A DNA stretch of 8,345 nt from IMG/VR virus record IMGVR_UViG_2778261591_000009; one strand, given 5' to 3'. Source of the DNA: a virus (lineage: Duplodnaviria; Heunggongvirae; Uroviricota; Caudoviricetes). The notes beneath the pieces were generated by a model that was not told the origin of the DNA, did no database searches, and saw only the letters and a program-made list of their open reading frames with translations. The position numbers and the translations under genes were made by a program. Of this stretch, positions 1,028 through 7,808 are shown piece by piece (position 1 is the stretch's first letter; the number at the start of each line of letters is the position of its first letter).

Positions 1028-1755
1028 TATGCAACATTACTCCCATGAATCAGGTGTTGTAGTGCTTTAACACCTTCCGCATTGTAGCGGAATACTTCCA
1101 CCTGTTTGCTGGAATGCGCAGATTTATCCAGGAAGAACTTACCGTACTGCTCAGTTTTGAGGTTGTTTGCGTTAGCAATGCGACCAATCTTGTTGGCCGT
1201 TACTCCAAGCTGCTCTGCAACCTCCCCTGCTGAGTAGTAATGCTCTTCTATTGCTGGAAGAGGTATTGCATTAAAACCAACGATCGGGTTGATTATGCTT
1301 GCTGCCGCAGTCTGCTTTGCTTCCGGCGCAAGATTTGGCATCAAATCGAACAGATTGGTAACAGCTTCAACCGTCATTTTCAATGTTCGCGCCTGGCGAT
1401 ACTCAACAAGTCCACTCGACGATTTACCGCTTTTAATGTGCGCTTCTTGCATACTTTCAAGTTGGTCTACAAGTGAGCGGCGAACAGCTTTAGATTCACG
1501 AGCAGCCACTCGAAGGGCTTGCTTAATTGACATAACAACTTTTTCAGAAGTTGTCTTGTTTGATTTTTGAACTACGAAAATTTCGTAGTGCTCACCTTCA
1601 AGTTCATCCTTAATGCGTGCAATAAAGTCGTTATTTCGGACTTCTTTTTCCCCGCACTGTCTACGAGCATGATTGACCATCTCTAACAGGTACTGGCTAT
1701 CAATGGTTTTATCCGTGACAACGGATCCGATGTTTGCTACATTCTTAAAAGTCAT
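1027..1755 (-). CDS. Antirepressor-like phage regulatory protein (242 aa), second gene of tandem ant pair
   Basis: Track ORF 1027..1842 trimmed to the ATG at 1753-1755, which is preceded by AAGGAA (plus-strand ttcctt 1762-1767); the longer N-terminal extension has no ribosome-binding site. It sits immediately downstream of the Bro-N antirepressor in the same operon. The C-terminal segment YSAGEVAEQLGVTANKIGRIANANNLKTEQYGKFF...VEVFRYNAEGVKAL looks like a helix-turn-helix region of the kind found in phage antirepressor C-terminal (KilAC/ORF6C-type) domains. The family assignment is from memory and position only. Confidence 0.6.
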   Translation of the reverse strand: MTFKNVANIGSVVTDKTIDSQYLLEMVNHARRQCGEKEVRNNDFIARIKDELEGEHYEIFVVQKSNKTTSEKVVMSIKQALRVAARESKAVRRSLVDQLESMQEAHIKSGKSSSGLVEYRQARTLKMTVEAVTNLFDLMPNLAPEAKQTAAASIINPIVGFNAIPLPAIEEHYYSAGEVAEQLGVTANKIGRIANANNLKTEQYGKFFLDKSAHSSKQVEVFRYNAEGVKALQHLIHGSNVA

Positions 1756-1823
1756 TAGGCATTCCTTATGTGGTAGTAAGGGTGTGACATAGGCCGCCAG
1801 CAGCACACTGGCGGTTTTCTTTT
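1750..1823 (+). ncRNA. Candidate sar-like antisense RNA (about 74 nt) opposite the start codon and ribosome-binding site of the second antirepressor gene, ending at an intrinsic terminator
   Basis: Plus-strand promoter-like elements lie inside the first codons of the minus-strand gene: GTGACA (1715-1720), a 14-bp gap, then extended -10 TGcTACATT (1735-1743). The predicted start is near 1750. A GC-rich hairpin (ccgccag 1794-1800, loop cagcaca, ctggcgg 1808-1814) is followed directly by UUUUCUUUU (1815-1823). On the minus strand the same hairpin is not followed by a U-tract, so it is oriented for a plus-strand transcript. Ends are approximate. Confidence 0.45.
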
Positions 1824-1842: not shown

Positions 1843-2481
1843 TCAATGAATCCATTCCTCGCCGCGAAGTTTTGCCAGCATTGGCTGAGCGTTCTTTACG
1901 ACAAAATTGTTGGGATCAAGATTCTTCATTTCACGAAGAAGCGATTTCTTGGTTTCTTCTGACATGTAGCGAGTCTCATATGCAATATCGTAAATCTTTC
2001 CTGAAAGCTCAGAACCAATTTGCTTCATTCCAGGGTAGATGTGTTTGCACATTTGTTGACTCTTCTCCATCCACAATTGTAAGTAGCAGAGATTAACCAG
2101 TTCTTCGTCAGTAAACTGTTTTGCAATCGGTGAGCATTCTGCCTGCCGATCCAAAATATCCAGCACCCAGCGGCGGAACTCTTTGGCCTTGGGCGTAGAA
2201 GCAAACATCGCCACCAAGTGAGCGCCTCGGAGTGAGTAAACTCTGACCGATTTGTTACGTAAGCTATTGTTTATTCCGTTGACCTTCATATTGAGGGTCA
2301 ATGACATTGAGTCAGAAAATTCGTCAGCATTACGGGCATAAATTTGGCTGATGGCATCAGTTTTTTTATAGCCGAGAGCCTTAGCTAGTTCGGTGGAGGT
2401 AAACCAGATAGACCCGCCCTCTGTTACAGGGTTAAAAGTGAATCCTTGGAAGTTATAATCTGATTTTGCTACAATATTCAT
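1843..2481 (-). CDS. Bro-N domain antirepressor (Ant-like), 212 aa
   Basis: Track ORF 1843..2565 trimmed to the ATG at 2479-2481, preceded by AAGGAA at 7-nt spacing; upstream in-frame ATGs lack a ribosome-binding site and would overlap arc. The N-terminus MNIVAKSDYNFQGFTFNPVTEGGSIWFTSTELAKALGYKKTDAISQIYARNADEF...VRVYSLRGAHLVAMFASTPKAKEFRRWVLDIL matches the Bro-N pattern (F-F ... W-F ... LGY ... F-RW) that I recall from phage antirepressors. It is the first gene after arc, as ant is in P22 immI. Confidence 0.75.
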   Translation of the reverse strand: MNIVAKSDYNFQGFTFNPVTEGGSIWFTSTELAKALGYKKTDAISQIYARNADEFSDSMSLTLNMKVNGINNSLRNKSVRVYSLRGAHLVAMFASTPKAKEFRRWVLDILDRQAECSPIAKQFTDEELVNLCYLQLWMEKSQQMCKHIYPGMKQIGSELSGKIYDIAYETRYMSEETKKSLLREMKNLDPNNFVVKNAQPMLAKLRGEEWIH

Positions 2482-2556
2482 GTTAGTTTCCTTGAGTACG
2501 GTTACTGACATAGAGGCCCGGTTTGTGTTCGCGCACTTCCGGGCTTCACTATTTTT
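2482..2556 (+). ncRNA. Candidate sar-like antisense RNA (about 75-90 nt) across the arc-ant intercistronic region and the ant ribosome-binding site
   Basis: Two plus-strand promoter candidates lie inside the 5' end of the Bro-N ant gene: TTAAAA (2432-2437) with 16-bp spacer and TATAAT (2454-2459), and an extended -10 TGcTACAAT (2467-2475) with TTGGAA (2446-2451) 18 bp upstream. A hairpin (2513-2521 pairing with 2539-2547, including one G-U) is followed by UAUUUUU (2550-2556) abutting the arc stop codon. The position and size correspond to P22 sar RNA, which is established knowledge. Ends are approximate. Confidence 0.45.
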
Positions 2557-2731
2557 ACTGGGCATTAGCTCTTTCCTCTCTCAGGCTTTTAGCCAGTCGC
2601 TGCACAATCGCAGAGTTGATAGAAATTCCATCCATTTCAGCTACGCGTCTGATCTCCTCCTTCATTCGCGCTGGCAAACGAAGCTGGAAACTCTGACTTT
2701 TACGACCACTGTAAAGAACATCGCTCATCAT
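2555..2731 (-). CDS. arc: Arc-like ribbon-helix-helix repressor (58 aa)
   Basis: Track ORF 2555..2746 with the start moved to ATG 2729-2731, which has GGAG (plus-strand ctcc 2738-2741) 6 nt upstream; the track start at 2746 would abut the operator palindrome with no ribosome-binding site. Protein MMSDVLYSGRKSQSFQLRLPARMKEEIRRVAEMDGISINSAIVQRLAKSLREERANAQ aligns with P22 Arc as recalled (QFNLRWPREV...NGRSVNSEIYQRVMESFKKEGR). It is the first gene of the antirepressor operon and divergent from mnt. Confidence 0.8.
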   Translation of the reverse strand: MMSDVLYSGRKSQSFQLRLPARMKEEIRRVAEMDGISINSAIVQRLAKSLREERANAQ

Positions 2732-2851: not shown

Positions 2852-3103
2852 ATGTCAGAAAAAGACGAATCAAATTTCATAGAAAGATTTACGGTTAGAA
2901 TGCCTGACGGCATGCGTAGTGCTATTGCGGAAAGGGCTAAACGAAACGGTCGATCTATGAACTCAGAGATAGTTCAAATTCTTGAGGATGCGTTATCATC
3001 TGACGTCTCATCAGTAGACAAATCATTAGATCTTAAACAAATAAAATCTTTACTTGATAAAATTTCCAACGAGTTACTGGATAGAATCCCAAAAGACACA
3101 TAA
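2852..3103 (+). CDS. mnt: Mnt-like ribbon-helix-helix repressor, 83 aa (positional mnt)
   Basis: Track ORF 2804..3103 trimmed to the ATG at 2852-2854; the 16-aa upstream extension MMLLCFLLLICLANKK is hydrophobic and implausible for a repressor. Protein MSEKDESNFIERFTVRMPDGMRSAIAERAKRNGRSMNSEIVQILEDALSSDVSSVDKSLDLKQIKSLLDKISNELLDRIPKDT. The N-terminal half matches the Mnt/Arc RHH motif (P22 Mnt ...FRMPMEVREKLKFRAEANGRSMNSELLQIVQDALS as recalled), and the C-terminal half is heptad-like, consistent with a coiled-coil oligomerisation tail. It is transcribed divergently from arc, as mnt is in P22. The region is AT-rich. Confidence 0.8.
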   Translation: MSEKDESNFIERFTVRMPDGMRSAIAERAKRNGRSMNSEIVQILEDALSSDVSSVDKSLDLKQIKSLLDKISNELLDRIPKDT

Positions 3104-3153: not shown

Positions 3154-3792
3154 ATGAAAAAAATAGATATATATAGCGATACATCAGCCTATGTCATAGG
3201 CTCATTGGGTTTTTTAATTTTTTTTGTTTGGCAGTACCAGTCACTATCTCCAGGATGGCGATTTTTGGGGATGTCTTTGATATCACTTGGTGCAGGAATA
3301 GCAACGCAGGTGTTGATGTATCTCTTTAATGGATGGCTCTCAAAAAGAGTTGAGAAAAAAAGAGCTACTTCAATATGTAGAAGCCTAGCTATTCCAGAAG
3401 ACTCTACAGATCAGGATGATATTGCAAAATGTTGGCGGTATATGATTGCAAGATACTCAAATGAGTTACTGGCAAACAGACTGTCCGACTTAATCGGGAT
3501 CGTAGTTACCTCTGTTGGAACAATCATCAGTATAGGGATATCAATTTGGTATGTCGGGATGATTGTCTATTTTGTTTGGAATAGAGACTTCAATGAACCT
3601 TCCCTTCTTTTTATACCTTTATTTTTCAGGGTATTAGCATTCATATGTGAGTTATTGCTCTCTTTTTTCTGCAATGTTTTGTTCAACAGATACCCAGGTG
3701 AAGCAAGAAAGTTTAATAAAAACTATGATGAGTTAAGGAGAACAGATCCTTTTCTATCAAGCAAAGAGTTCCGCGATTCCATTCGCAATTAA
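3154..3792 (+). CDS. Polytopic inner-membrane protein (212 aa) at the sieA position; candidate superinfection-exclusion protein
   Basis: Track ORF 3121..3792 trimmed to ATG 3154-3156, with AAGGAG at 3138-3143. The protein has at least four hydrophobic helices (AYVIGSLGFLIFFVWQY, FLGMSLISLGAGIATQVLMYLF, LIGIVVTSVGTIISIGISIWYVGMIVYFVW, LLFIPLFFRVLAFICELLLSFFCNVLF). The gene is very AT-rich (about one-third GC in sampled stretches against about 45-50% in the late genes). It lies between the ejection gene gp16 and mnt on the mnt strand, which is the slot P22 uses for sieA. The functional call is positional; I cannot confirm sequence similarity to SieA from memory. Confidence 0.7.
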   Translation: MKKIDIYSDTSAYVIGSLGFLIFFVWQYQSLSPGWRFLGMSLISLGAGIATQVLMYLFNGWLSKRVEKKRATSICRSLAIPEDSTDQDDIAKCWRYMIARYSNELLANRLSDLIGIVVTSVGTIISIGISIWYVGMIVYFVWNRDFNEPSLLFIPLFFRVLAFICELLLSFFCNVLFNRYPGEARKFNKNYDELRRTDPFLSSKEFRDSIRN

Positions 3793-3813: not shown

Positions 3814-5655
3814 TTAGCGATCAGTTGCATCATTGGCAAGTATTGGTCTGATGGCATTTGCGGCGTTATTCAGCGCTCTTTCATAGGCTGGTGTTCCTGC
3901 TTTGGTGTTTGCCAAACGTAAGAGAGCATTCCTTGCTGCTTTAGACTCATACAAACGCATCATTGCACCAAAGCCAGCCTCAAGCCCCATTGATACGCCA
4001 AGAGTCGCAGTTGCGCCAATCGTCCTTATCCGGTTGGCTTGCGATTGCCCCGTCTGAGTTACTACATTTGCGGTGTCTGACCTTGCTGTTTGCTGTAGAA
4101 CTTCATGAAGAGAATCAAGCTCTTTCATGTGCTTTCCAGAAAAAATAGTGTTGTAAATTTCACCACCTGACTGAGATTTCAGCTTATTAACTTCAGTGAT
4201 GAACTTGGCTGGAGAATCACCGGCCTTTTCCGCTATTTTGCTGACGTAAGCTGCACGCATAGCATCTTTCCCTTTATCATCCAATGCGCTCCAGATTCGT
4301 TTCACGTCAGATGGTTTTCTGCTTAATACAACGGTATTTATAAGTTCAGGACTGGCTTCACTGCTTGCCTTGTTGAGCTTGTTAGCAATGTTTTTATTAA
4401 GCACCTTATTATAAACGTTTGCATAATCTGAATTTGCTTTAAGGTATTTTGCTGCGTCTGATGCACCGAGGTTTTTAGCAACTGCGTTACGAAGGTCTTT
4501 TGACATTGCATTCTCTACCATATTGGTAGCTGCTTTTGCCTGGTTGGGGAAGACCATAGAATCTCCCTGAACATTAGATCTAAATGCTGTTCTGTGCTGA
4601 CGCAAGAGATCAAACGTAACATCCAAATCAGTTGCAGGGTTTGCTAATTCTTCACGTAGGTTACGCAAGGATGTAAGCAGGCTTTGATTGGCTGAAGTCC
4701 CAAGCCGTTCCTGTCTTGCGATCGCTGTATTCAGAGCATTCATGGTATTTGTGGTATCAACTGCGGCATTACCCATTTTATTGGTGACGTCATTGATAAC
4801 AGCGCCAGCAGCATCCTTCCGCCCCCTTAACGTGGTGGTCAGAGATTTCACCACATCATCAGGGTTGTACTCACCAAAACGGTCAAAATAATTGCTTACC
4901 AGCTTACTACGCGTTGCATATTGCTCCGCTCGCTTTGAGCCTGTCCCGAGCAAAGCCCCCTCGGCATCCTGAGTAAGGCCGCGAGTGAAAGCATTTTTCG
5001 GCGGGATAACATCAGATGTCATTGGTGTCACGCCCATCGATTCTGAAGTGGCAATTTTCTTCGCCACTTCTGGCGCAATATCACCTTTTATAGCCGTTAT
5101 TCCACGCCCTATTCCCTTTGCTGCTGCGGAAAGAACACCCTGAGCGGCAAGGTTAACTCCGGCATTTTTAGCTGCATTTTGTGCGAAATCGCCTTTCTGA
5201 TTTGCGGCCTCTGCCAGTGATCCAATAGCCATGCTTCCTGCCGTTCCAATTCCTGGAACTAAATACCCGCCAATTGTTTCTCCAGCTTGAGCGTAGGGGT
5301 CTGTCGGTCTGTCTACTGGACGATAAACATCATCCAAAACTTTTGGCCCACCAAGCCCCTGACTGATTGCATTAATCAGACTTGCGCCACCCTGCAATAC
5401 GTCAAATGGTATGTTTACCAGACCACGACCAGCCTGTTCTGCAATTTGCCCTGCACTTTGACCACCAGTGAGCCAATCGCCAGCTTGTTGCATCAATGAT
5501 GGTTCTTCCCGTGTTGGTGCATTATTGGCCTGATTAACTGTTTGTTGCTGAACAGCCTGACCAGCAAAATACTCATCAATGGCGGTGCCAATATCTTCGG
5601 TGCTCGTACCATCAGGAAAGGTAAATGTCTTACCGTTTGCAGTTACTTTCATCAT
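3814..5655 (-). CDS. Ejection (DNA-transfer) protein, P22 gp16-like, about 613 aa
   Basis: Long minus-strand ORF with late-gene composition. Its tandem ATGs at 5653-5655 and 5650-5652 overlap the TGA stop of the upstream gene (ATGA-type coupling). It is third in a run of 224, 490 and 613 aa that matches the size and order of P22 gp7 (229), gp20 (471) and gp16 (609) immediately upstream of sieA/mnt. The sequence is Gly/Ala/Gln-rich with no obvious enzymatic motif. The assignment rests on synteny and size. Confidence 0.8.
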
Positions 5656-7124
5656 TCCACCGTAAATTGAATGCCTGATTTTGAGGTATATGATCCGGAT
5701 TGACTCTGCTGCTGTTGGGTATTTGTCGGTTGTTGGCTATTGCTCTGTTGTTGACTATTTGCAGCACTTGAAACCACCAAAGCATCATAAACGCGACCAG
5801 ACTGACCACGTAATGAGTTATATTGGCCCTGCATTTTTCGCATTTTTGTTTCAGTAGCAGCCTTGGAATCACCGGGCTGAGGCAGGTACATTTTGGAATA
5901 CTCCTGCATCTCTGGCAGAGTAATTGCTGCACCTGTTTCTGGGCGCAAAATTGCATACAAGGCGTCTCTCGCATTTACCATATATTGCTGCTCCGCTGGT
6001 GATAGGCTTAAATTTGCAATAGTCCCATCACCAAGAGAGCGATTTATTAATGCAACTCGCTTAGGGTCAATGCTTTTACTAAGCTGATTCATTGAGTCCA
6101 TTGAATCTTTTAATCGCAAAGCAAATCCCGCCGCCTTCTTGGAACCCTCATTAGCCTTATCTATGATGCTTTGCGCTTGTGGCAAGCTAATTGGTTTAAT
6201 GCCATCACCAGATATAGGTTGGTTTAGTTTTCCGGCTTCCTCGCTGCCATCGGTGTAATACTTAGTTACCGAGCCATCAGGATTGGTTTCAACCTTAAGT
6301 AATTTCTTAGCATTGGGATTAATTCCCGCCGCTGCCGCAAATGCCGCTGCACCATCTGGATCTACCTTTAACATTTGCGCGTACTGATTGTAATTCTGCA
6401 TTGCGGCTGTTGGTGCATATGCTGACGTTAACGCATTTGCTCGGCTAATATCCTGCCCTCTCGCCTGAAGTGCTTCACCAGCCTGATTGCTGCGGATTGT
6501 CTCTGCCAGTCTGCCTCGGTCAATCTCACGACCCGCCATCTTGTCCTGAACATTGAAGTAATCAATCGGACCAAGCGCGGCCATTCCAAGATGATCAACA
6601 AACTCACCAAATCCTGAAGGGTTCTGCTGATACATCTGAGCAACGTTGTTAGGGTCAACACCGACGCGAGTCAGTTCCTTGGCGTTGTTTTGCAGCCATG
6701 ATTGCATTGCTTCTGGAGACGAGGCTGCAAGGCGTGCGCCAGCCGCTAAGGTGCCGATAGAATTGCGCTGGTCTTCGTCTGCCCACTTCATACCAGACTG
6801 AATCTTCTCTAATTGACCAGGATATTTGGTCATCAGATCTCGCACCTGCTGTCGATCACCTGACTGGATGGCTGCCGCATATTCTTTTTGGAATGCAGCA
6901 TCCACTTCCTGTTGCTTTGCGGCTTGATATGTTTGAGCGACACTACCAAGCCCCTGCAACGCCTGAAGGCCGATGTTATTGCGACCTGAGCGCTCCATTT
7001 CGTTGTTCTGGCGAATATAGGCCAACGCCTCACTTACATCACTTGCCTTTGGCGCATTTGAGTTTTGCCCACCGATACCAGCAAGAAAGCCGCCTGAGTT
7101 GATTCCTTGTTGCCAAGTAGCCAT
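5652..7124 (-). CDS. Ejection (DNA-transfer) protein, P22 gp20-like, 490 aa
   Basis: Minus-strand ORF with ATG 7122-7124 and GGTGG 5-6 nt upstream; the stop at 5652-5654 overlaps the next start. It is the middle member of the 7-20-16 block by order and size. The C-terminus is Gln/Ser-rich ([21 protein letters not shown]). Confidence 0.8.
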
Positions 7125-7133
7125 ATTCCCACC

Positions 7134-7808
7134 TTAAAACAATGATCCAAGACCACCGATAATGCCGCCACCAATAGCGCCAACAGCCGTACCTATTCCT
7201 GGCACCACAGAGCCAATCATCGCCCCTGATGCCGCACCGCTCATGGCACCTCCCAAGGCTGATTGCAGTCCTGATGGTCGGTTAGCATTCGCCGCAGATG
7301 CTGCCGCCTGCTGTTGATACAGTTGGCTGACGTTGTTAGCGTAGTTCTGTCCGGCATTTGCCTGACCTGTAAGAGCACCAAGGCCGATATTTGCCAGATT
7401 GTTGTAGTTGTTCATCTGACCTGACAGCCAGTTTTGACCGAGTGTAGGTGCGATTGCTGCTAACTGGTTTCCTGTTGCTGTAGAGCCTAATCCACCCGTT
7501 GCCTCTGCTGCTGCCAGACTCTGGTAACGCGCCTGACCTGCAAGGTCTTTATACTGCTGAGAGTTGTAATACTGGTTAAGCGCCTGACCTTGCCCCTGAA
7601 GAGAGGAAAGATTCTGCAACTCTGATACGTACTGTTGAGCGAGTGGCGTGAACGGTGCGAGGTTTTGCATGTTCGTTTGCCACATTTCACGCTGCAATTC
7701 GATACCCTTTTCAGTTGCGCGTGCCTGGGCTTTTGAACCGCCATCACTGCCGCCTTTGCAGTAAACAGCTTTGCTGAGGTGCTTATTGGCAATCTGGAAA
7801 ATTAACAT
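7134..7808 (-). CDS. Ejection (DNA-transfer) protein, P22 gp7-like, 224 aa
   Basis: Minus-strand ORF with ATG 7806-7808 and GAGGAG 7 nt upstream. It has a glycine-rich hydrophobic C-terminus (GAMSGAASGAMIGSVVPGIGTAVGAIGGGIIGGLGSLF). It is the first of the three ejection genes by order and size. Confidence 0.8.
   Translation of the reverse strand: MLIFQIANKHLSKAVYCKGGSDGGSKAQARATEKGIELQREMWQTNMQNLAPFTPLAQQYVSELQNLSSLQGQGQALNQYYNSQQYKDLAGQARYQSLAAAEATGGLGSTATGNQLAAIAPTLGQNWLSGQMNNYNNLANIGLGALTGQANAGQNYANNVSQLYQQQAAASAANANRPSGLQSALGGAMSGAASGAMIGSVVPGIGTAVGAIGGGIIGGLGSLF

Follow-up and report, generated by a model that had tools for sequence, protein, structure and literature searches.

The window, by which we mean the whole 8,345-nucleotide stretch of DNA that was analysed, constitutes the immI region of a P22-like prophage of E. 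coli. Its antirepressor gene, ant, lies on the minus strand at 1843-2481 and encodes a protein of 212 amino acids with Bro-N and P22AR C-terminal domains (Pfam PF02498 and PF10548). The ant start codon occupies 2481-2479, placing its complement CAT at 2479-2481 of the plus strand, and a Shine-Dalgarno sequence, AAGGAAA, is found 5 nt upstream of the ATG. The upstream cistron of the arc-ant operon is arc (2555-2728, minus strand), whose 57-amino-acid product is an Arc-like ribbon-helix-helix repressor matching Pfam PF03869 (E = 8e-12); the complement of its stop codon, TTA, is at 2555-2557. Both genes are annotated in the RefSeq record of an identical prophage, where ant starts at 2481, and a divergent Mnt-like gene sits in the cassette beside Arc and Ant. 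Between arc and ant is a spacer of 73 nt (2482-2554). Of 5,426 complete E. coli genomes, 70 contain the sar-like stretch found there, as does phage JEP4.

For P22 and phages like it, sar has been described as an antisense regulator that blocks the translation of ant (PMC2629481, PMC13397905, PMC12111858). P22 sar, family RF00262 in Rfam, was the subject of Liao et al. 1987, Wu et al. 1987 and Schaefer and McClure 1997 (cited in PMC2629481). The annotation of the P22 antisense transcript derives from published mapping, and the RNA has also been detected by sRNA-seq. As annotated, it begins at the base adjoining the ant ATG and reaches the arc stop codon, with its promoter within the first ant codons and its terminator abutting arc. 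A preliminary description of the present locus proposed a homologue of this RNA rather than a novelty, and position, sequence, structure and family membership uphold that proposal. When the sequence was re-read, the extended -10, upstream TATAAT, hairpin, tail and 73-nt spacer that the description had listed were all in place.

The sar-like RNA, predicted from a P22-sar model, a family model and its fold, is encoded at 2482-2556 of the plus strand and would be ~73-75 nt long. Its predicted 5′ end, G2482, is taken from the mapped 5′ end of P22 sar, and its 3′ end is assigned to a U-run. In the fold, stem-loop 1 (2482-2509, plus strand) consists of a 6-bp stem, GUUAGU paired with ACUGAC, and a 16-nt loop. 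The 5′ side of this loop carries an anti-Shine-Dalgarno sequence, UUUCCUU (2487-2493, plus strand), complementary to the ant AAGGAAA; the DNA here reads TTTCCTT, which bears out the earlier claim that a transcript would be complementary to the ant ribosome-binding site. A G+C-rich terminator hairpin follows at 2513-2547 (plus strand), in which an internal loop separates a 9-bp outer stem (GAGGCCCGG / CCGGGCUUC) from a 4-bp inner one. After the hairpin and a CAC comes the terminator U-run, UAUUUUU (2550-2556, plus strand), which shares two bases with the arc stop codon. Read from arc to ant, the hairpin leads into UAUGUCAGUAACC, which has no U-run, and it would therefore be a terminator on the plus strand only. 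Folding of the 73-nt transcript gave two hairpins like those of P22, with a minimum free energy of -31 kcal/mol (z = -5.0), and 0 of 200 shuffles were equally stable. The sar terminator hairpin was not reported by a simple terminator scan, which we attribute to the scan's loop limit of 3-8 nt and to the break that the internal loop makes in the stem; this miss was given no weight against a terminator.

A candidate promoter for this RNA lies inside the beginning of ant. Its extended -10, TGCTACAAT (2467-2475, plus strand), comprises a TG at 2467-2468, a c and the hexamer TACAAT at 2470-2475, and a promoter scan placed a -35-like hexamer, TTGGAA (2446-2451, plus strand), 18 nt upstream of it. 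This -35 is weak, matching at four of six positions with an 18-nt spacer. A (T/G)TGGAA or TTGAT(A/T) motif recurs in relatives at the same distance; because it overlaps conserved ant codons (N-F-Q/H-G), its conservation is not assignable to the promoter alone. The scan of the plus strand yielded two candidates, TTGGAA-18-TACAAT with its upstream TG and TTAAAA-16-TATAAT. Promoter-like sites were not enriched (5 observed versus 3.1 +/- 2.0 expected in shuffles), so the hexamers alone are no evidence. Across 45 distinct upstream contexts spanning 24 different Ant N-termini, the TAnnnT of the -10 is kept in every one, exactly 3 nt from the complement of the ant start codon in 43, and a TGn precedes it in 31. 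Throughout these contexts, -12T and -11A fall in an ant codon that reads GTA, ATA or TTA (xTA). The -10 hexamer is thus conserved at the nucleotide level, at synonymous ant sites and at a fixed distance. In alignment, TGcTACAAT of the window corresponds to TGcTATACT of P22, after which both continue identically as ATTCAT-G. By sequence, the site is a candidate promoter of the Psar type with a predicted 5′ end. On the minus strand, the scan picked out a Pant-like promoter, TTGACA-16-CATAAT (2775-2802; 11 of 12 matches), which would drive arc-ant and yield the target mRNA. Its location agrees with that of the annotated P22 Pant, divergent to mnt, and it is convergent with the candidate sar promoter. 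Liao and colleagues (1987) are reported to have found that Psar is activated by convergent transcription from Pant.

Pairwise alignment to P22 sar, by which the preliminary description had suggested checking the homology, found shared blocks at the promoter and 5′ arm, the 3′ arm and the terminator. The block TTGCTAyAmTATTCATGTTrGTTT covers the -10, the complement of the start codon and the 5′ arm; TTACTGACA is the 3′ arm, and GCCC...GGGCTTC is the terminator. A covariance model built from P22 sar only (R1) gave a full-length match at 2482-2553 of the plus strand, with 19.7 bits and an E-value of ~0.003 on a rough calibration, and this was the best match in the window (8.3 kb, both strands, filters off). 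Other R1 matches in the window, at 263-299 (E = 0.11) and 1501-1566 (E = 0.33), were discarded as partial or poorly paired and were gone with the family model. That family model (R2), seeded on P22 and trained only on lineages other than the window type, scored the element at 56.1 bits (E ~1e-12) and returned nothing else below E = 0.8 in the whole window. Applied to loci fetched via the Arc protein alone, R1 produced a graded series of matches at the arc-ant junction, from 105 down to ~18 bits. Rfam itself did not find sar in the whole window at gathering thresholds or in 601 nt at E <= 10. RF00262 aligned to the element over its full length, with 18.1 bits (E = 0.1), only when 86 nt were searched, and this score does not reach the gathering threshold of 43 bits; P22, as a positive control, scored 97.8 bits. 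Weak Rfam matches to SymR, AaHKsRNA82, MIR837 and Vax2os1 fell far below their cut-offs and were set aside as generic matches of shape. By these scores, the element is a diverged member of the sar family, not a close copy, and is missed by the standard Rfam model.

The architecture extends well beyond the window. All 42 distinct spacers have the two-hairpin fold, an anti-Shine-Dalgarno loop and then a terminator, with a pyrimidine-rich anti-Shine-Dalgarno at the loop 1 position in each (42/42), and the terminator T-run is kept in relatives. In a structural alignment of 36 distinct sequences made with the covariance model, 95.8% of cells were paired, a percentage inflated by the fitting of the alignment to the P22 structure. 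Covariation extends to both helices: changes on both sides were seen at 16 of 20 pairs, and at 6 of 6 pairs of stem 1, among sequences that are related and hence not independent observations. None of 500 shuffles attained the observed values, and slid controls were only 28-50% paired. RNAalifold recovers both helices unaided from the model-based alignment. In a structure-blind MAFFT alignment of 38 spacers, compensatory changes are already visible in the terminator and only there; RNAalifold recovers the terminator alone from this alignment because stem 1 is out of register. Pairing also differs by strand, at 95.8% when read on the plus strand versus 77.9% on the mRNA strand, and the plus-strand reading contains 129 G·U cells and 0 A·C cells. 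The abundance of G·U and the absence of A·C therefore point to selection on the plus-strand RNA. Among the relatives, L006 (= SPN3UB), L088, L075, L058 and L052 score above the Rfam sar cut-off, and others are sub-threshold or undetected. In the phage records examined, no RNA feature is annotated at the arc-ant junction, which four of the records include in the ant CDS; sar is likewise unmentioned in a paper on prophage transcriptomics (PMC7067206).

The preliminary description had put forward two promoters for the antisense RNA. Its extended -10 stood, with conservation in 45 of 45 contexts; its upstream TATAAT (2454-2459, plus strand) is present, but just 4 of 45 distinct relatives have it there, and it is probably incidental. 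Initiation from TTAAAA-16-TATAAT (2432-2459), as the true or an extra start, would give a longer RNA, beginning at ~2466 and complementary to the ant start codon as well. This is the better hexamer match, with 10 of 12 positions and a consensus -10, and a published P22 sar sRNA-seq contig (AUUCAUGUUGG...) reaches a few bases further upstream than the annotated 5′ end. However, the sequences that relatives carry instead at the TATAAT position include TGTAAT, TTAAAT and TGAGGT, the last of these in KP12, and the pairwise alignment offers no P22 counterpart. TGTAAT, the commonest alternative within the same Ant type, lacks the critical -11A, and its difference from TATAAT is silent in ant, where the codon specifies Tyr either way (TAT or TAC). 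We therefore regard an upstream start as unlikely, though the site may still be active in the present prophage. An appeal to chance, with the A+T-rich beginning of a coding sequence mimicking a promoter and a G+C-rich palindrome mimicking a terminator, fits the shuffle-expected rate of promoter-like hexamers and deserves almost no credence. The fold z-score of -5.0, the model matches (with the best R1 match at 2482-2553), the covarying conserved features and conservation over 24 Ant N-terminal types are more than chance would give, and the comparative data refute it. It is only slightly more credible that the structure works in the sense strand alone, as a cis element of the arc-ant mRNA (a hairpin presenting the Shine-Dalgarno, a processing site or an attenuator) with no functional antisense RNA. 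The complements of the hairpins can form in the ant leader, where 77.9% of cells pair and the ant Shine-Dalgarno would lie in a loop. Against such an element stand the G·U and A·C counts, the U-run 3′ of the hairpin on the plus strand only, the -10 conserved at synonymous ant sites and a fixed distance, and the P22 antisense transcript, which has been mapped and seen by sRNA-seq.

A coding role for the spacer is also improbable, although less so than either chance or a purely sense-strand element. Here ant would begin at an ATG at 2565, 11 nt inside arc, and encode 240 amino acids, its translation possibly coupled to that of arc, and the hairpins would be by-products of an N-terminal extension. 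The ORF at 1843-2565 is indeed open and in frame, with a GAGGAA motif ~8 nt upstream of the ATG. An equivalent ATG, overlapping arc, is annotated in KP12, vB_SosS_Oslo, SPN3UB and ST11-VIM1phi8.1, and the frame is open back to such an ATG in 32 of 42 distinct spacers. Yet in the remaining 10, P22 included, it is out of frame, closed or without an ATG, and the spacers display no three-base periodicity (mean entropies of 0.99, 1.00 and 1.10 at codon positions 1, 2 and 3). The ATG is explained by a conserved Asn-Gly/Ala at the Arc C-terminus (AAT-G..) and the GAGGA by Arg-Glu-Glu, and the conserved peptide stretches (SEAP...GAS) coincide exactly with the two arms of the palindrome that forms the terminator stem. 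A strong Shine-Dalgarno and the ATG at 2481, which is also the RefSeq start, are kept in all lineages. Finally, an extended Ant leaves unexplained both the strand asymmetry of G·U pairs and the conserved -10. The lack of codon periodicity and the 10 incompatible spacers led us to judge it unlikely; an extended ant and an antisense RNA are not mutually exclusive.

It is thus highly likely, on the sequence and comparative evidence, that a diverged homologue of P22 sar, a cis-antisense RNA of ~73-75 nt, is encoded on the plus strand between arc and ant. The element is very probably an unannotated new member of a known family that the Rfam model misses. Transcription would be driven by a sigma-70 promoter inside the first ant codons, with its -10 TACAAT at 2470-2475 and an upstream TG, and would start, by homology with P22, at G2482, adjoining the ant start codon. 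The 5′ stem-loop would present the anti-Shine-Dalgarno in its loop, and the transcript would end at the intrinsic terminator (2513-2547 plus the U-run) abutting the arc stop codon. Being cis-antisense, the RNA is by construction fully complementary to the ant leader, and it would pair with arc-ant mRNA arising from Pant or from late read-through. Such pairing, presumably initiated by loop-loop contact, would mask the ant ribosome-binding site and thereby prevent translation of the antirepressor, by the mechanism described for P22 sar. That this prophage transcribes the RNA, where precisely its two ends fall and that it represses ant translation are inferences.

The assignment gives a function to a short unannotated stretch and corrects a recurrent annotation error, in which four phage records run ant through the sar region into arc. 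Rfam's sar model captures only a part of the actual family, the rest of which a broader model seeded from the present alignment would recover. It is the antirepressor that determines whether repressor immunity gives way to a P22-like phage, resident or incoming, and a full Mnt/Arc/sar control layer in this prophage helps to predict its inducibility and its interplay with other phages. Our understanding of how sar acts is unchanged. A more speculative reading, which we hold tentatively and think somewhat more likely wrong than right, is that sar is the best-known member of a larger, fast-evolving and largely missed family, in which the -10 is hard-wired into antirepressor codons 3-4, the hairpins are swapped as modules and two antisense units stand in tandem here. 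In such a family, the antirepressor genes that carry the -10 may be otherwise unrelated, and hairpin modules may be swapped between phages. A second unit at ~1715-1822 of the plus strand, non-homologous to sar, may be built alike and may lie opposite the ribosome-binding site of the KilA-like gene that comes next. If this larger-family reading is true, the 'ant moron' would be a two-gene operon with each cistron gated by its own antisense RNA.

Elements of the same cassette and RNA architecture are found in SPN3UB, vB_SosS_Oslo, the Klebsiella phages KP12, KpnBHU6 and ST11-VIM1phi8.1, and IMG/VR contigs, and the sar-like junction sequences of other temperate phages grade between P22 and the window type. 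In these relatives, stem 1 and the terminator come in several interchangeable sequence versions, the window combining the GUUAGU/ACUGAC stem with the GAGGCCCGG terminator. The nearest counterpart is P22 sar, which lies in the same arc-ant intercistronic region of immI and on the same strand relative to ant. In both, the -10 sits inside ant codons 3-4 with a TG upstream, the 5′ end (mapped in P22, predicted in the window) is adjacent to the ant ATG, and the tail of the terminator runs into the arc stop codon. Both fold into two hairpins, a 6-bp stem with a 16-nt loop holding the anti-Shine-Dalgarno and a G+C-rich terminator; stem 1 is GUUGGU / ACUGAC in P22 versus GUUAGU / ACUGAC in the window, and P22 sar is of comparable stability (-29.5 kcal/mol, z = -5.3). 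The two differ in length (a predicted ~73-75 nt in the window versus 68-70 nt in P22), in the -10 (TACAAT versus TATACT) and in the sequence of loop 1 (UUCCUUGAGUACGGUU versus UUUUCUCCAAGGAUUU). The window terminator, with its 9-bp outer stem, internal loop and 4-bp inner stem, replaces 14 continuous pairs in P22 and precedes a longer U-run (UAUUUUU versus CUUUA), and the target is an ant of 212 amino acids with a Bro-N N-terminal domain rather than one of 300 amino acids. Resemblance of the window element to SymR (18.6 bits) and of P22 sar to ctRNA_pGA1 is weak and sub-threshold; homology to either was rejected, as the scores are far under the cut-offs (61 and 45 bits) and the two-hairpin shape is generic. 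In a wider sense, the element resembles OOP of lambda and P22, P22 sas, SymR and the ctRNAs, which are likewise short, structured, terminator-ended RNAs that lie opposite a translation start and mask a ribosome-binding site.

The window belongs to a P22-like (Lederbergvirus-type) prophage and corresponds to its immI region, also called the "ant moron"; an identical stretch lies in the chromosomes of two E. coli strains of bovine origin, UTAK-1 and OkiPb01711. The minus strand encodes the tailspike 3′ end (1-401), two genes of unknown function (806-1027 and 1027-1755, the latter with a homologue named KilA in phage JEP4), ant (1843-2481; 212 aa, Bro-N and P22AR C-terminal domains), arc (2555-2728; 57 aa, PF03869) and homologues of the ejection proteins gp16, gp20 and gp7 (3814-7808). 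On the plus strand lie a second Arc/Mnt-like gene (537-791; PF03869), an mnt-like gene divergent from arc (2852-3103; PF03869) and a gene of unknown function that occupies the sieA position (3154-3792). The two plus-strand Mnt/Arc-family genes of this immI region thus flank the ant-containing block on either side. A Pant-like, near-consensus promoter (TTGACA-16-CATAAT, 2802-2775, minus strand) sits in the same place as P22 Pant. In the arc-mnt intergenic region (2745-2800), this site overlaps a divergent promoter-like site (ATGCCA-16-TATGAT, plus strand), and repeated palindromic motifs (ATGACATCA / TGATGTCAT) are candidate Arc and Mnt operators. RefSeq treats the mnt-like gene as an incomplete pseudogene (2852-3004) where the ORF list has an 83-aa frame to 3103. 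Likewise, the uninterrupted 490-aa frame at 5652-7124 (minus strand) in the ORF list appears in RefSeq only as 6474-7124, a partial 'phage DNA ejection protein' pseudogene.

Between the stop codon of arc and the start codon of ant lies a 73-nt spacer (2482-2554), which together with its margins carries a sar-like element on the plus strand. Its parts are an extended -10 (TGCTACAAT, 2467-2475), an upstream TATAAT (2454-2459), the complement of the ant Shine-Dalgarno sequence AAGGAAA (2487-2493), a hairpin (2513-2547) and UAUUUUU (2550-2556), which overlaps the arc stop codon. Re-reading of the sequence found each part where the preliminary description had placed it. A consensus scan recovered both plus-strand promoters; promoter-like sites in the window were no more frequent than in shuffles, so the hexamers alone are no proof. 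The 73-nt RNA folds into two hairpins (MFE -31 kcal/mol, z = -5.0). A U-run follows the hairpin 3′ on the plus strand only; read from arc towards ant, the sequence after the hairpin is UAUGUCAGUAACC.

The Rfam sar family, RF00262 (gathering cut-off 43 bits), scores P22 at 97.8 bits. It gave no window match in wide searches, and 18.1 bits for the window element when 86 nt were searched. A covariance model built with both helices from P22 sar as sole sequence (R1), run with filters off on both strands, placed its top window match, full-length, at 2482-2553 (plus strand) with 19.7 bits and E about 0.003 on a rough calibration. Relatives were collected as 80 IMG/VR loci retrieved with the Arc protein as sole bait, together with phage records located by DNA similarity. 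R1 matched the arc-ant junction in almost all loci, and its scores form a graded series: P22 stands at the top with 105 bits, intermediate loci score 55, 48, 38 and 30, and the window type stands at about 18-20. Five sampled loci pass RF00262, seven more are sub-threshold but significant, and the rest are missed. From the graded series and this pattern, the window type is the far end of a continuum and no separate family. A family model (R2), from whose training set the window type was excluded, scored the element at 56.1 bits (E about 1e-12); no further match in the window fell below E = 0.8. The proposal that the element is a P22 sar homologue is supported by this score, by the best R1 match in the window and by the common fold.

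Folding returned the two-hairpin shape in 42/42 distinct spacers. Stem 1 differs in sequence among them, with at least six versions (GUUAGU/ACUGAC, GUUGGUU/AACCGGC, GUCGA/UCGAU, GUCAAUA/UGUUGAU, GUCGAUUA/UAGUUGAC and AUCAGUUGU-type). Compensatory changes in the terminator are visible in a structure-blind MAFFT alignment, with six pair types at one pair. When 36 distinct sequences were aligned with the model, pairing held in 95.8% of cells, and 16 of the 20 pairs had changed on both sides, including all six of stem 1. None of 500 shuffles reached the observed pairing and covariation values, a control that yields no probability, since the alignment was fitted to the P22 structure and its sequences are related. 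Sliding the partners by 1-3 columns left only 28-50% pairing, and RNAalifold, unaided, predicted both helices from the model-based alignment. On the plus strand, G·U wobble pairs in either orientation make up 129/719 paired cells; A·C and C·A, the combinations expected where the mRNA strand has G·U, make up 0/719. Read on the ant-mRNA strand, the same columns drop to 77.9% pairing. This drop and the G·U asymmetry argue that the selected, folded molecule is the antisense RNA rather than the ant leader.

The promoter comparison took in 45 distinct upstream contexts, in which Ant has 24 different N-terminal hexapeptides and several unrelated bodies. All 45 contain a TAnnnT hexamer; in 43, exactly 3 nt separate it from the ant start-codon complement, and in 31 it directly follows TGn. 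Without exception, -12T and -11A are supplied by an ant codon GTA, ATA or TTA, all little used in enterobacteria. That Val, Ile or Leu is encoded here by the A-ending codon each time indicates selection on the -10 at the nucleotide rather than the protein level, and the -10 appears to be kept in place through codon choice in ant. The -35 of the window is a weak TTGGAA with an 18-nt spacer; since it is weak and overlaps conserved ant codons, nothing is claimed from it. The preliminary description had proposed two promoters, and both are present in the sequence, but the upstream TATAAT is found at the homologous position in just 4/45 contexts. The commonest alternative with the same Ant type is TGTAAT, a synonymous Tyr codon change; KP12 has TGAGGT, and pairwise alignment showed no counterpart in P22. 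We regard the upstream TATAAT as incidental, and it could fire in this prophage.

The spacer might instead be coding, with ant starting at an ATG 11 nt inside arc (ORF 1843-2565). This ORF is open and preceded by GAGGAA about 8 nt upstream of its ATG; four GenBank phage records annotate ant from the equivalent ATG, overlapping arc, and the frame is open in 32/42 distinct spacers. In the other 10, however, P22 among them, it is out of frame, closed or without ATG, and spacer variability has no three-base periodicity (0.99, 1.00, 1.10). The ATG and GAGGA are accounted for by the conserved Arc C-terminus, what is conserved in the putative peptide coincides with both arms of the palindromic stem, and at the downstream site a strong SD and ATG are universal. 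On these grounds, the extended ant is probably a mis-annotation, an artefact of longest-ORF calling, and a long isoform at a minor level is conceivable. An ant-frame ATG 8-11 nt inside the arc 3′ end occurs in the window (2555-2570) and at homologous sites in compared loci L004, L005, L006 (SPN3UB) and L008, each with GAGGA about 8 nt upstream and the sar region open throughout.

The sar module is flanked by mosaic joints, at about 2556 in the window versus about 4757 in JEP4 (L001). The two are 98% identical over ant and sar, and JEP4 has an unrelated arc-position gene from the terminator tail/arc stop onward. Many IMG/VR contigs (L011-L038) have arc, sar and the first ~40 nt of ant in common, followed by a different ant body, and stem 1 and terminator occur in varying combinations among loci. 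In L085 (1814-1881) and L087 (1893-1963), two further compared loci, an insertion between arc and the sar/ant unit sets the sar-like element apart from the arc homologue, about 440-520 nt further downstream; in L085 the terminator stem is quite different as well (GGGGCUUAGGCAG...).

Another antisense-like unit (1715-1822, plus strand) lies between the ant stop codon (1843-1845) and the ATG of the next minus-strand gene (1755-1753). It comprises a promoter-like GTGACA-17-TACATT with upstream TG (1715-1743), the complement of the start codon of the gene downstream (1753-1755), an anti-SD TTCCTTA (1762-1768) and a terminator hairpin of 10 bp (1791-1817) with TCTTTTG after it, all on the plus strand, with a U-run on that strand only. 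The hairpin (GCCGCCAG...CTGGCGG) and T-run are kept 3′ of ant in KP12, SPN3UB and ST11-VIM1phi8.1, and persist where the neighbouring gene differs. The unit is sar-like in build and not homologous to sar; R1 and R2 found no match to it in the window, and its fold z-score is only -2.0.

As a textbook antisense RNA, sar is already known from P22-like immI regions. New here are the E. coli variant, apparently a diverged sar member missed by the Rfam model, a sar family broader and more modular than the curated model, and the retention of the -10 through ant codon choice. The window-type element occurs in 70 of 5,426 complete E. coli genomes and in JEP4; neither the JEP4 record nor the 12 E. coli records among the matches listed carry an RNA feature under the match. 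The element is of modest interest, and the second unit, downstream of ant, is a more interesting lead and a separate finding.

In P22, sar acts by pairing with the ribosome-binding site of ant, so that Ant is not translated (PMC2629481, PMC13397905, PMC12111858). By homology, the predicted window RNA would pair with the ant leader on arc-ant transcripts (positions -1 to -73) and block initiation. Its anti-SD lies within the 16-nt loop of stem-loop 1, and the complementary mRNA loop presents the SD, an arrangement suited to a first contact that may be loop-loop. The P22 record annotates sar at 15021-15090 (complement), with its promoter within the first ant codons and its terminator adjoining arc; ant begins at 15091, which places the 5′ end of sar on the base adjoining the ant ATG. 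On the sar strand, P22 reads TTGCTATACT-ATTCAT-GTTGGTTTTTCTCC...ACTGAC...GAAGCCC...GGGGCTTC-AACTTTA and the window TTGCTACAAT-ATTCAT-GTTAGTTTCCTTG...ACTGAC...GAGGCCC...GGGCTTC-ACTATTTTTA. Pairwise alignment agrees with the suggested kinship: the two share the extended -10, the next six bases up to the start point, the arms of stem 1 and the terminator stem's base. P22 sar also adopts the window RNA's fold, with a 6-bp stem, its 16-nt loop and then the terminator (-29.5 kcal/mol, z = -5.3), and has one G·U pair where the window element has A-U.
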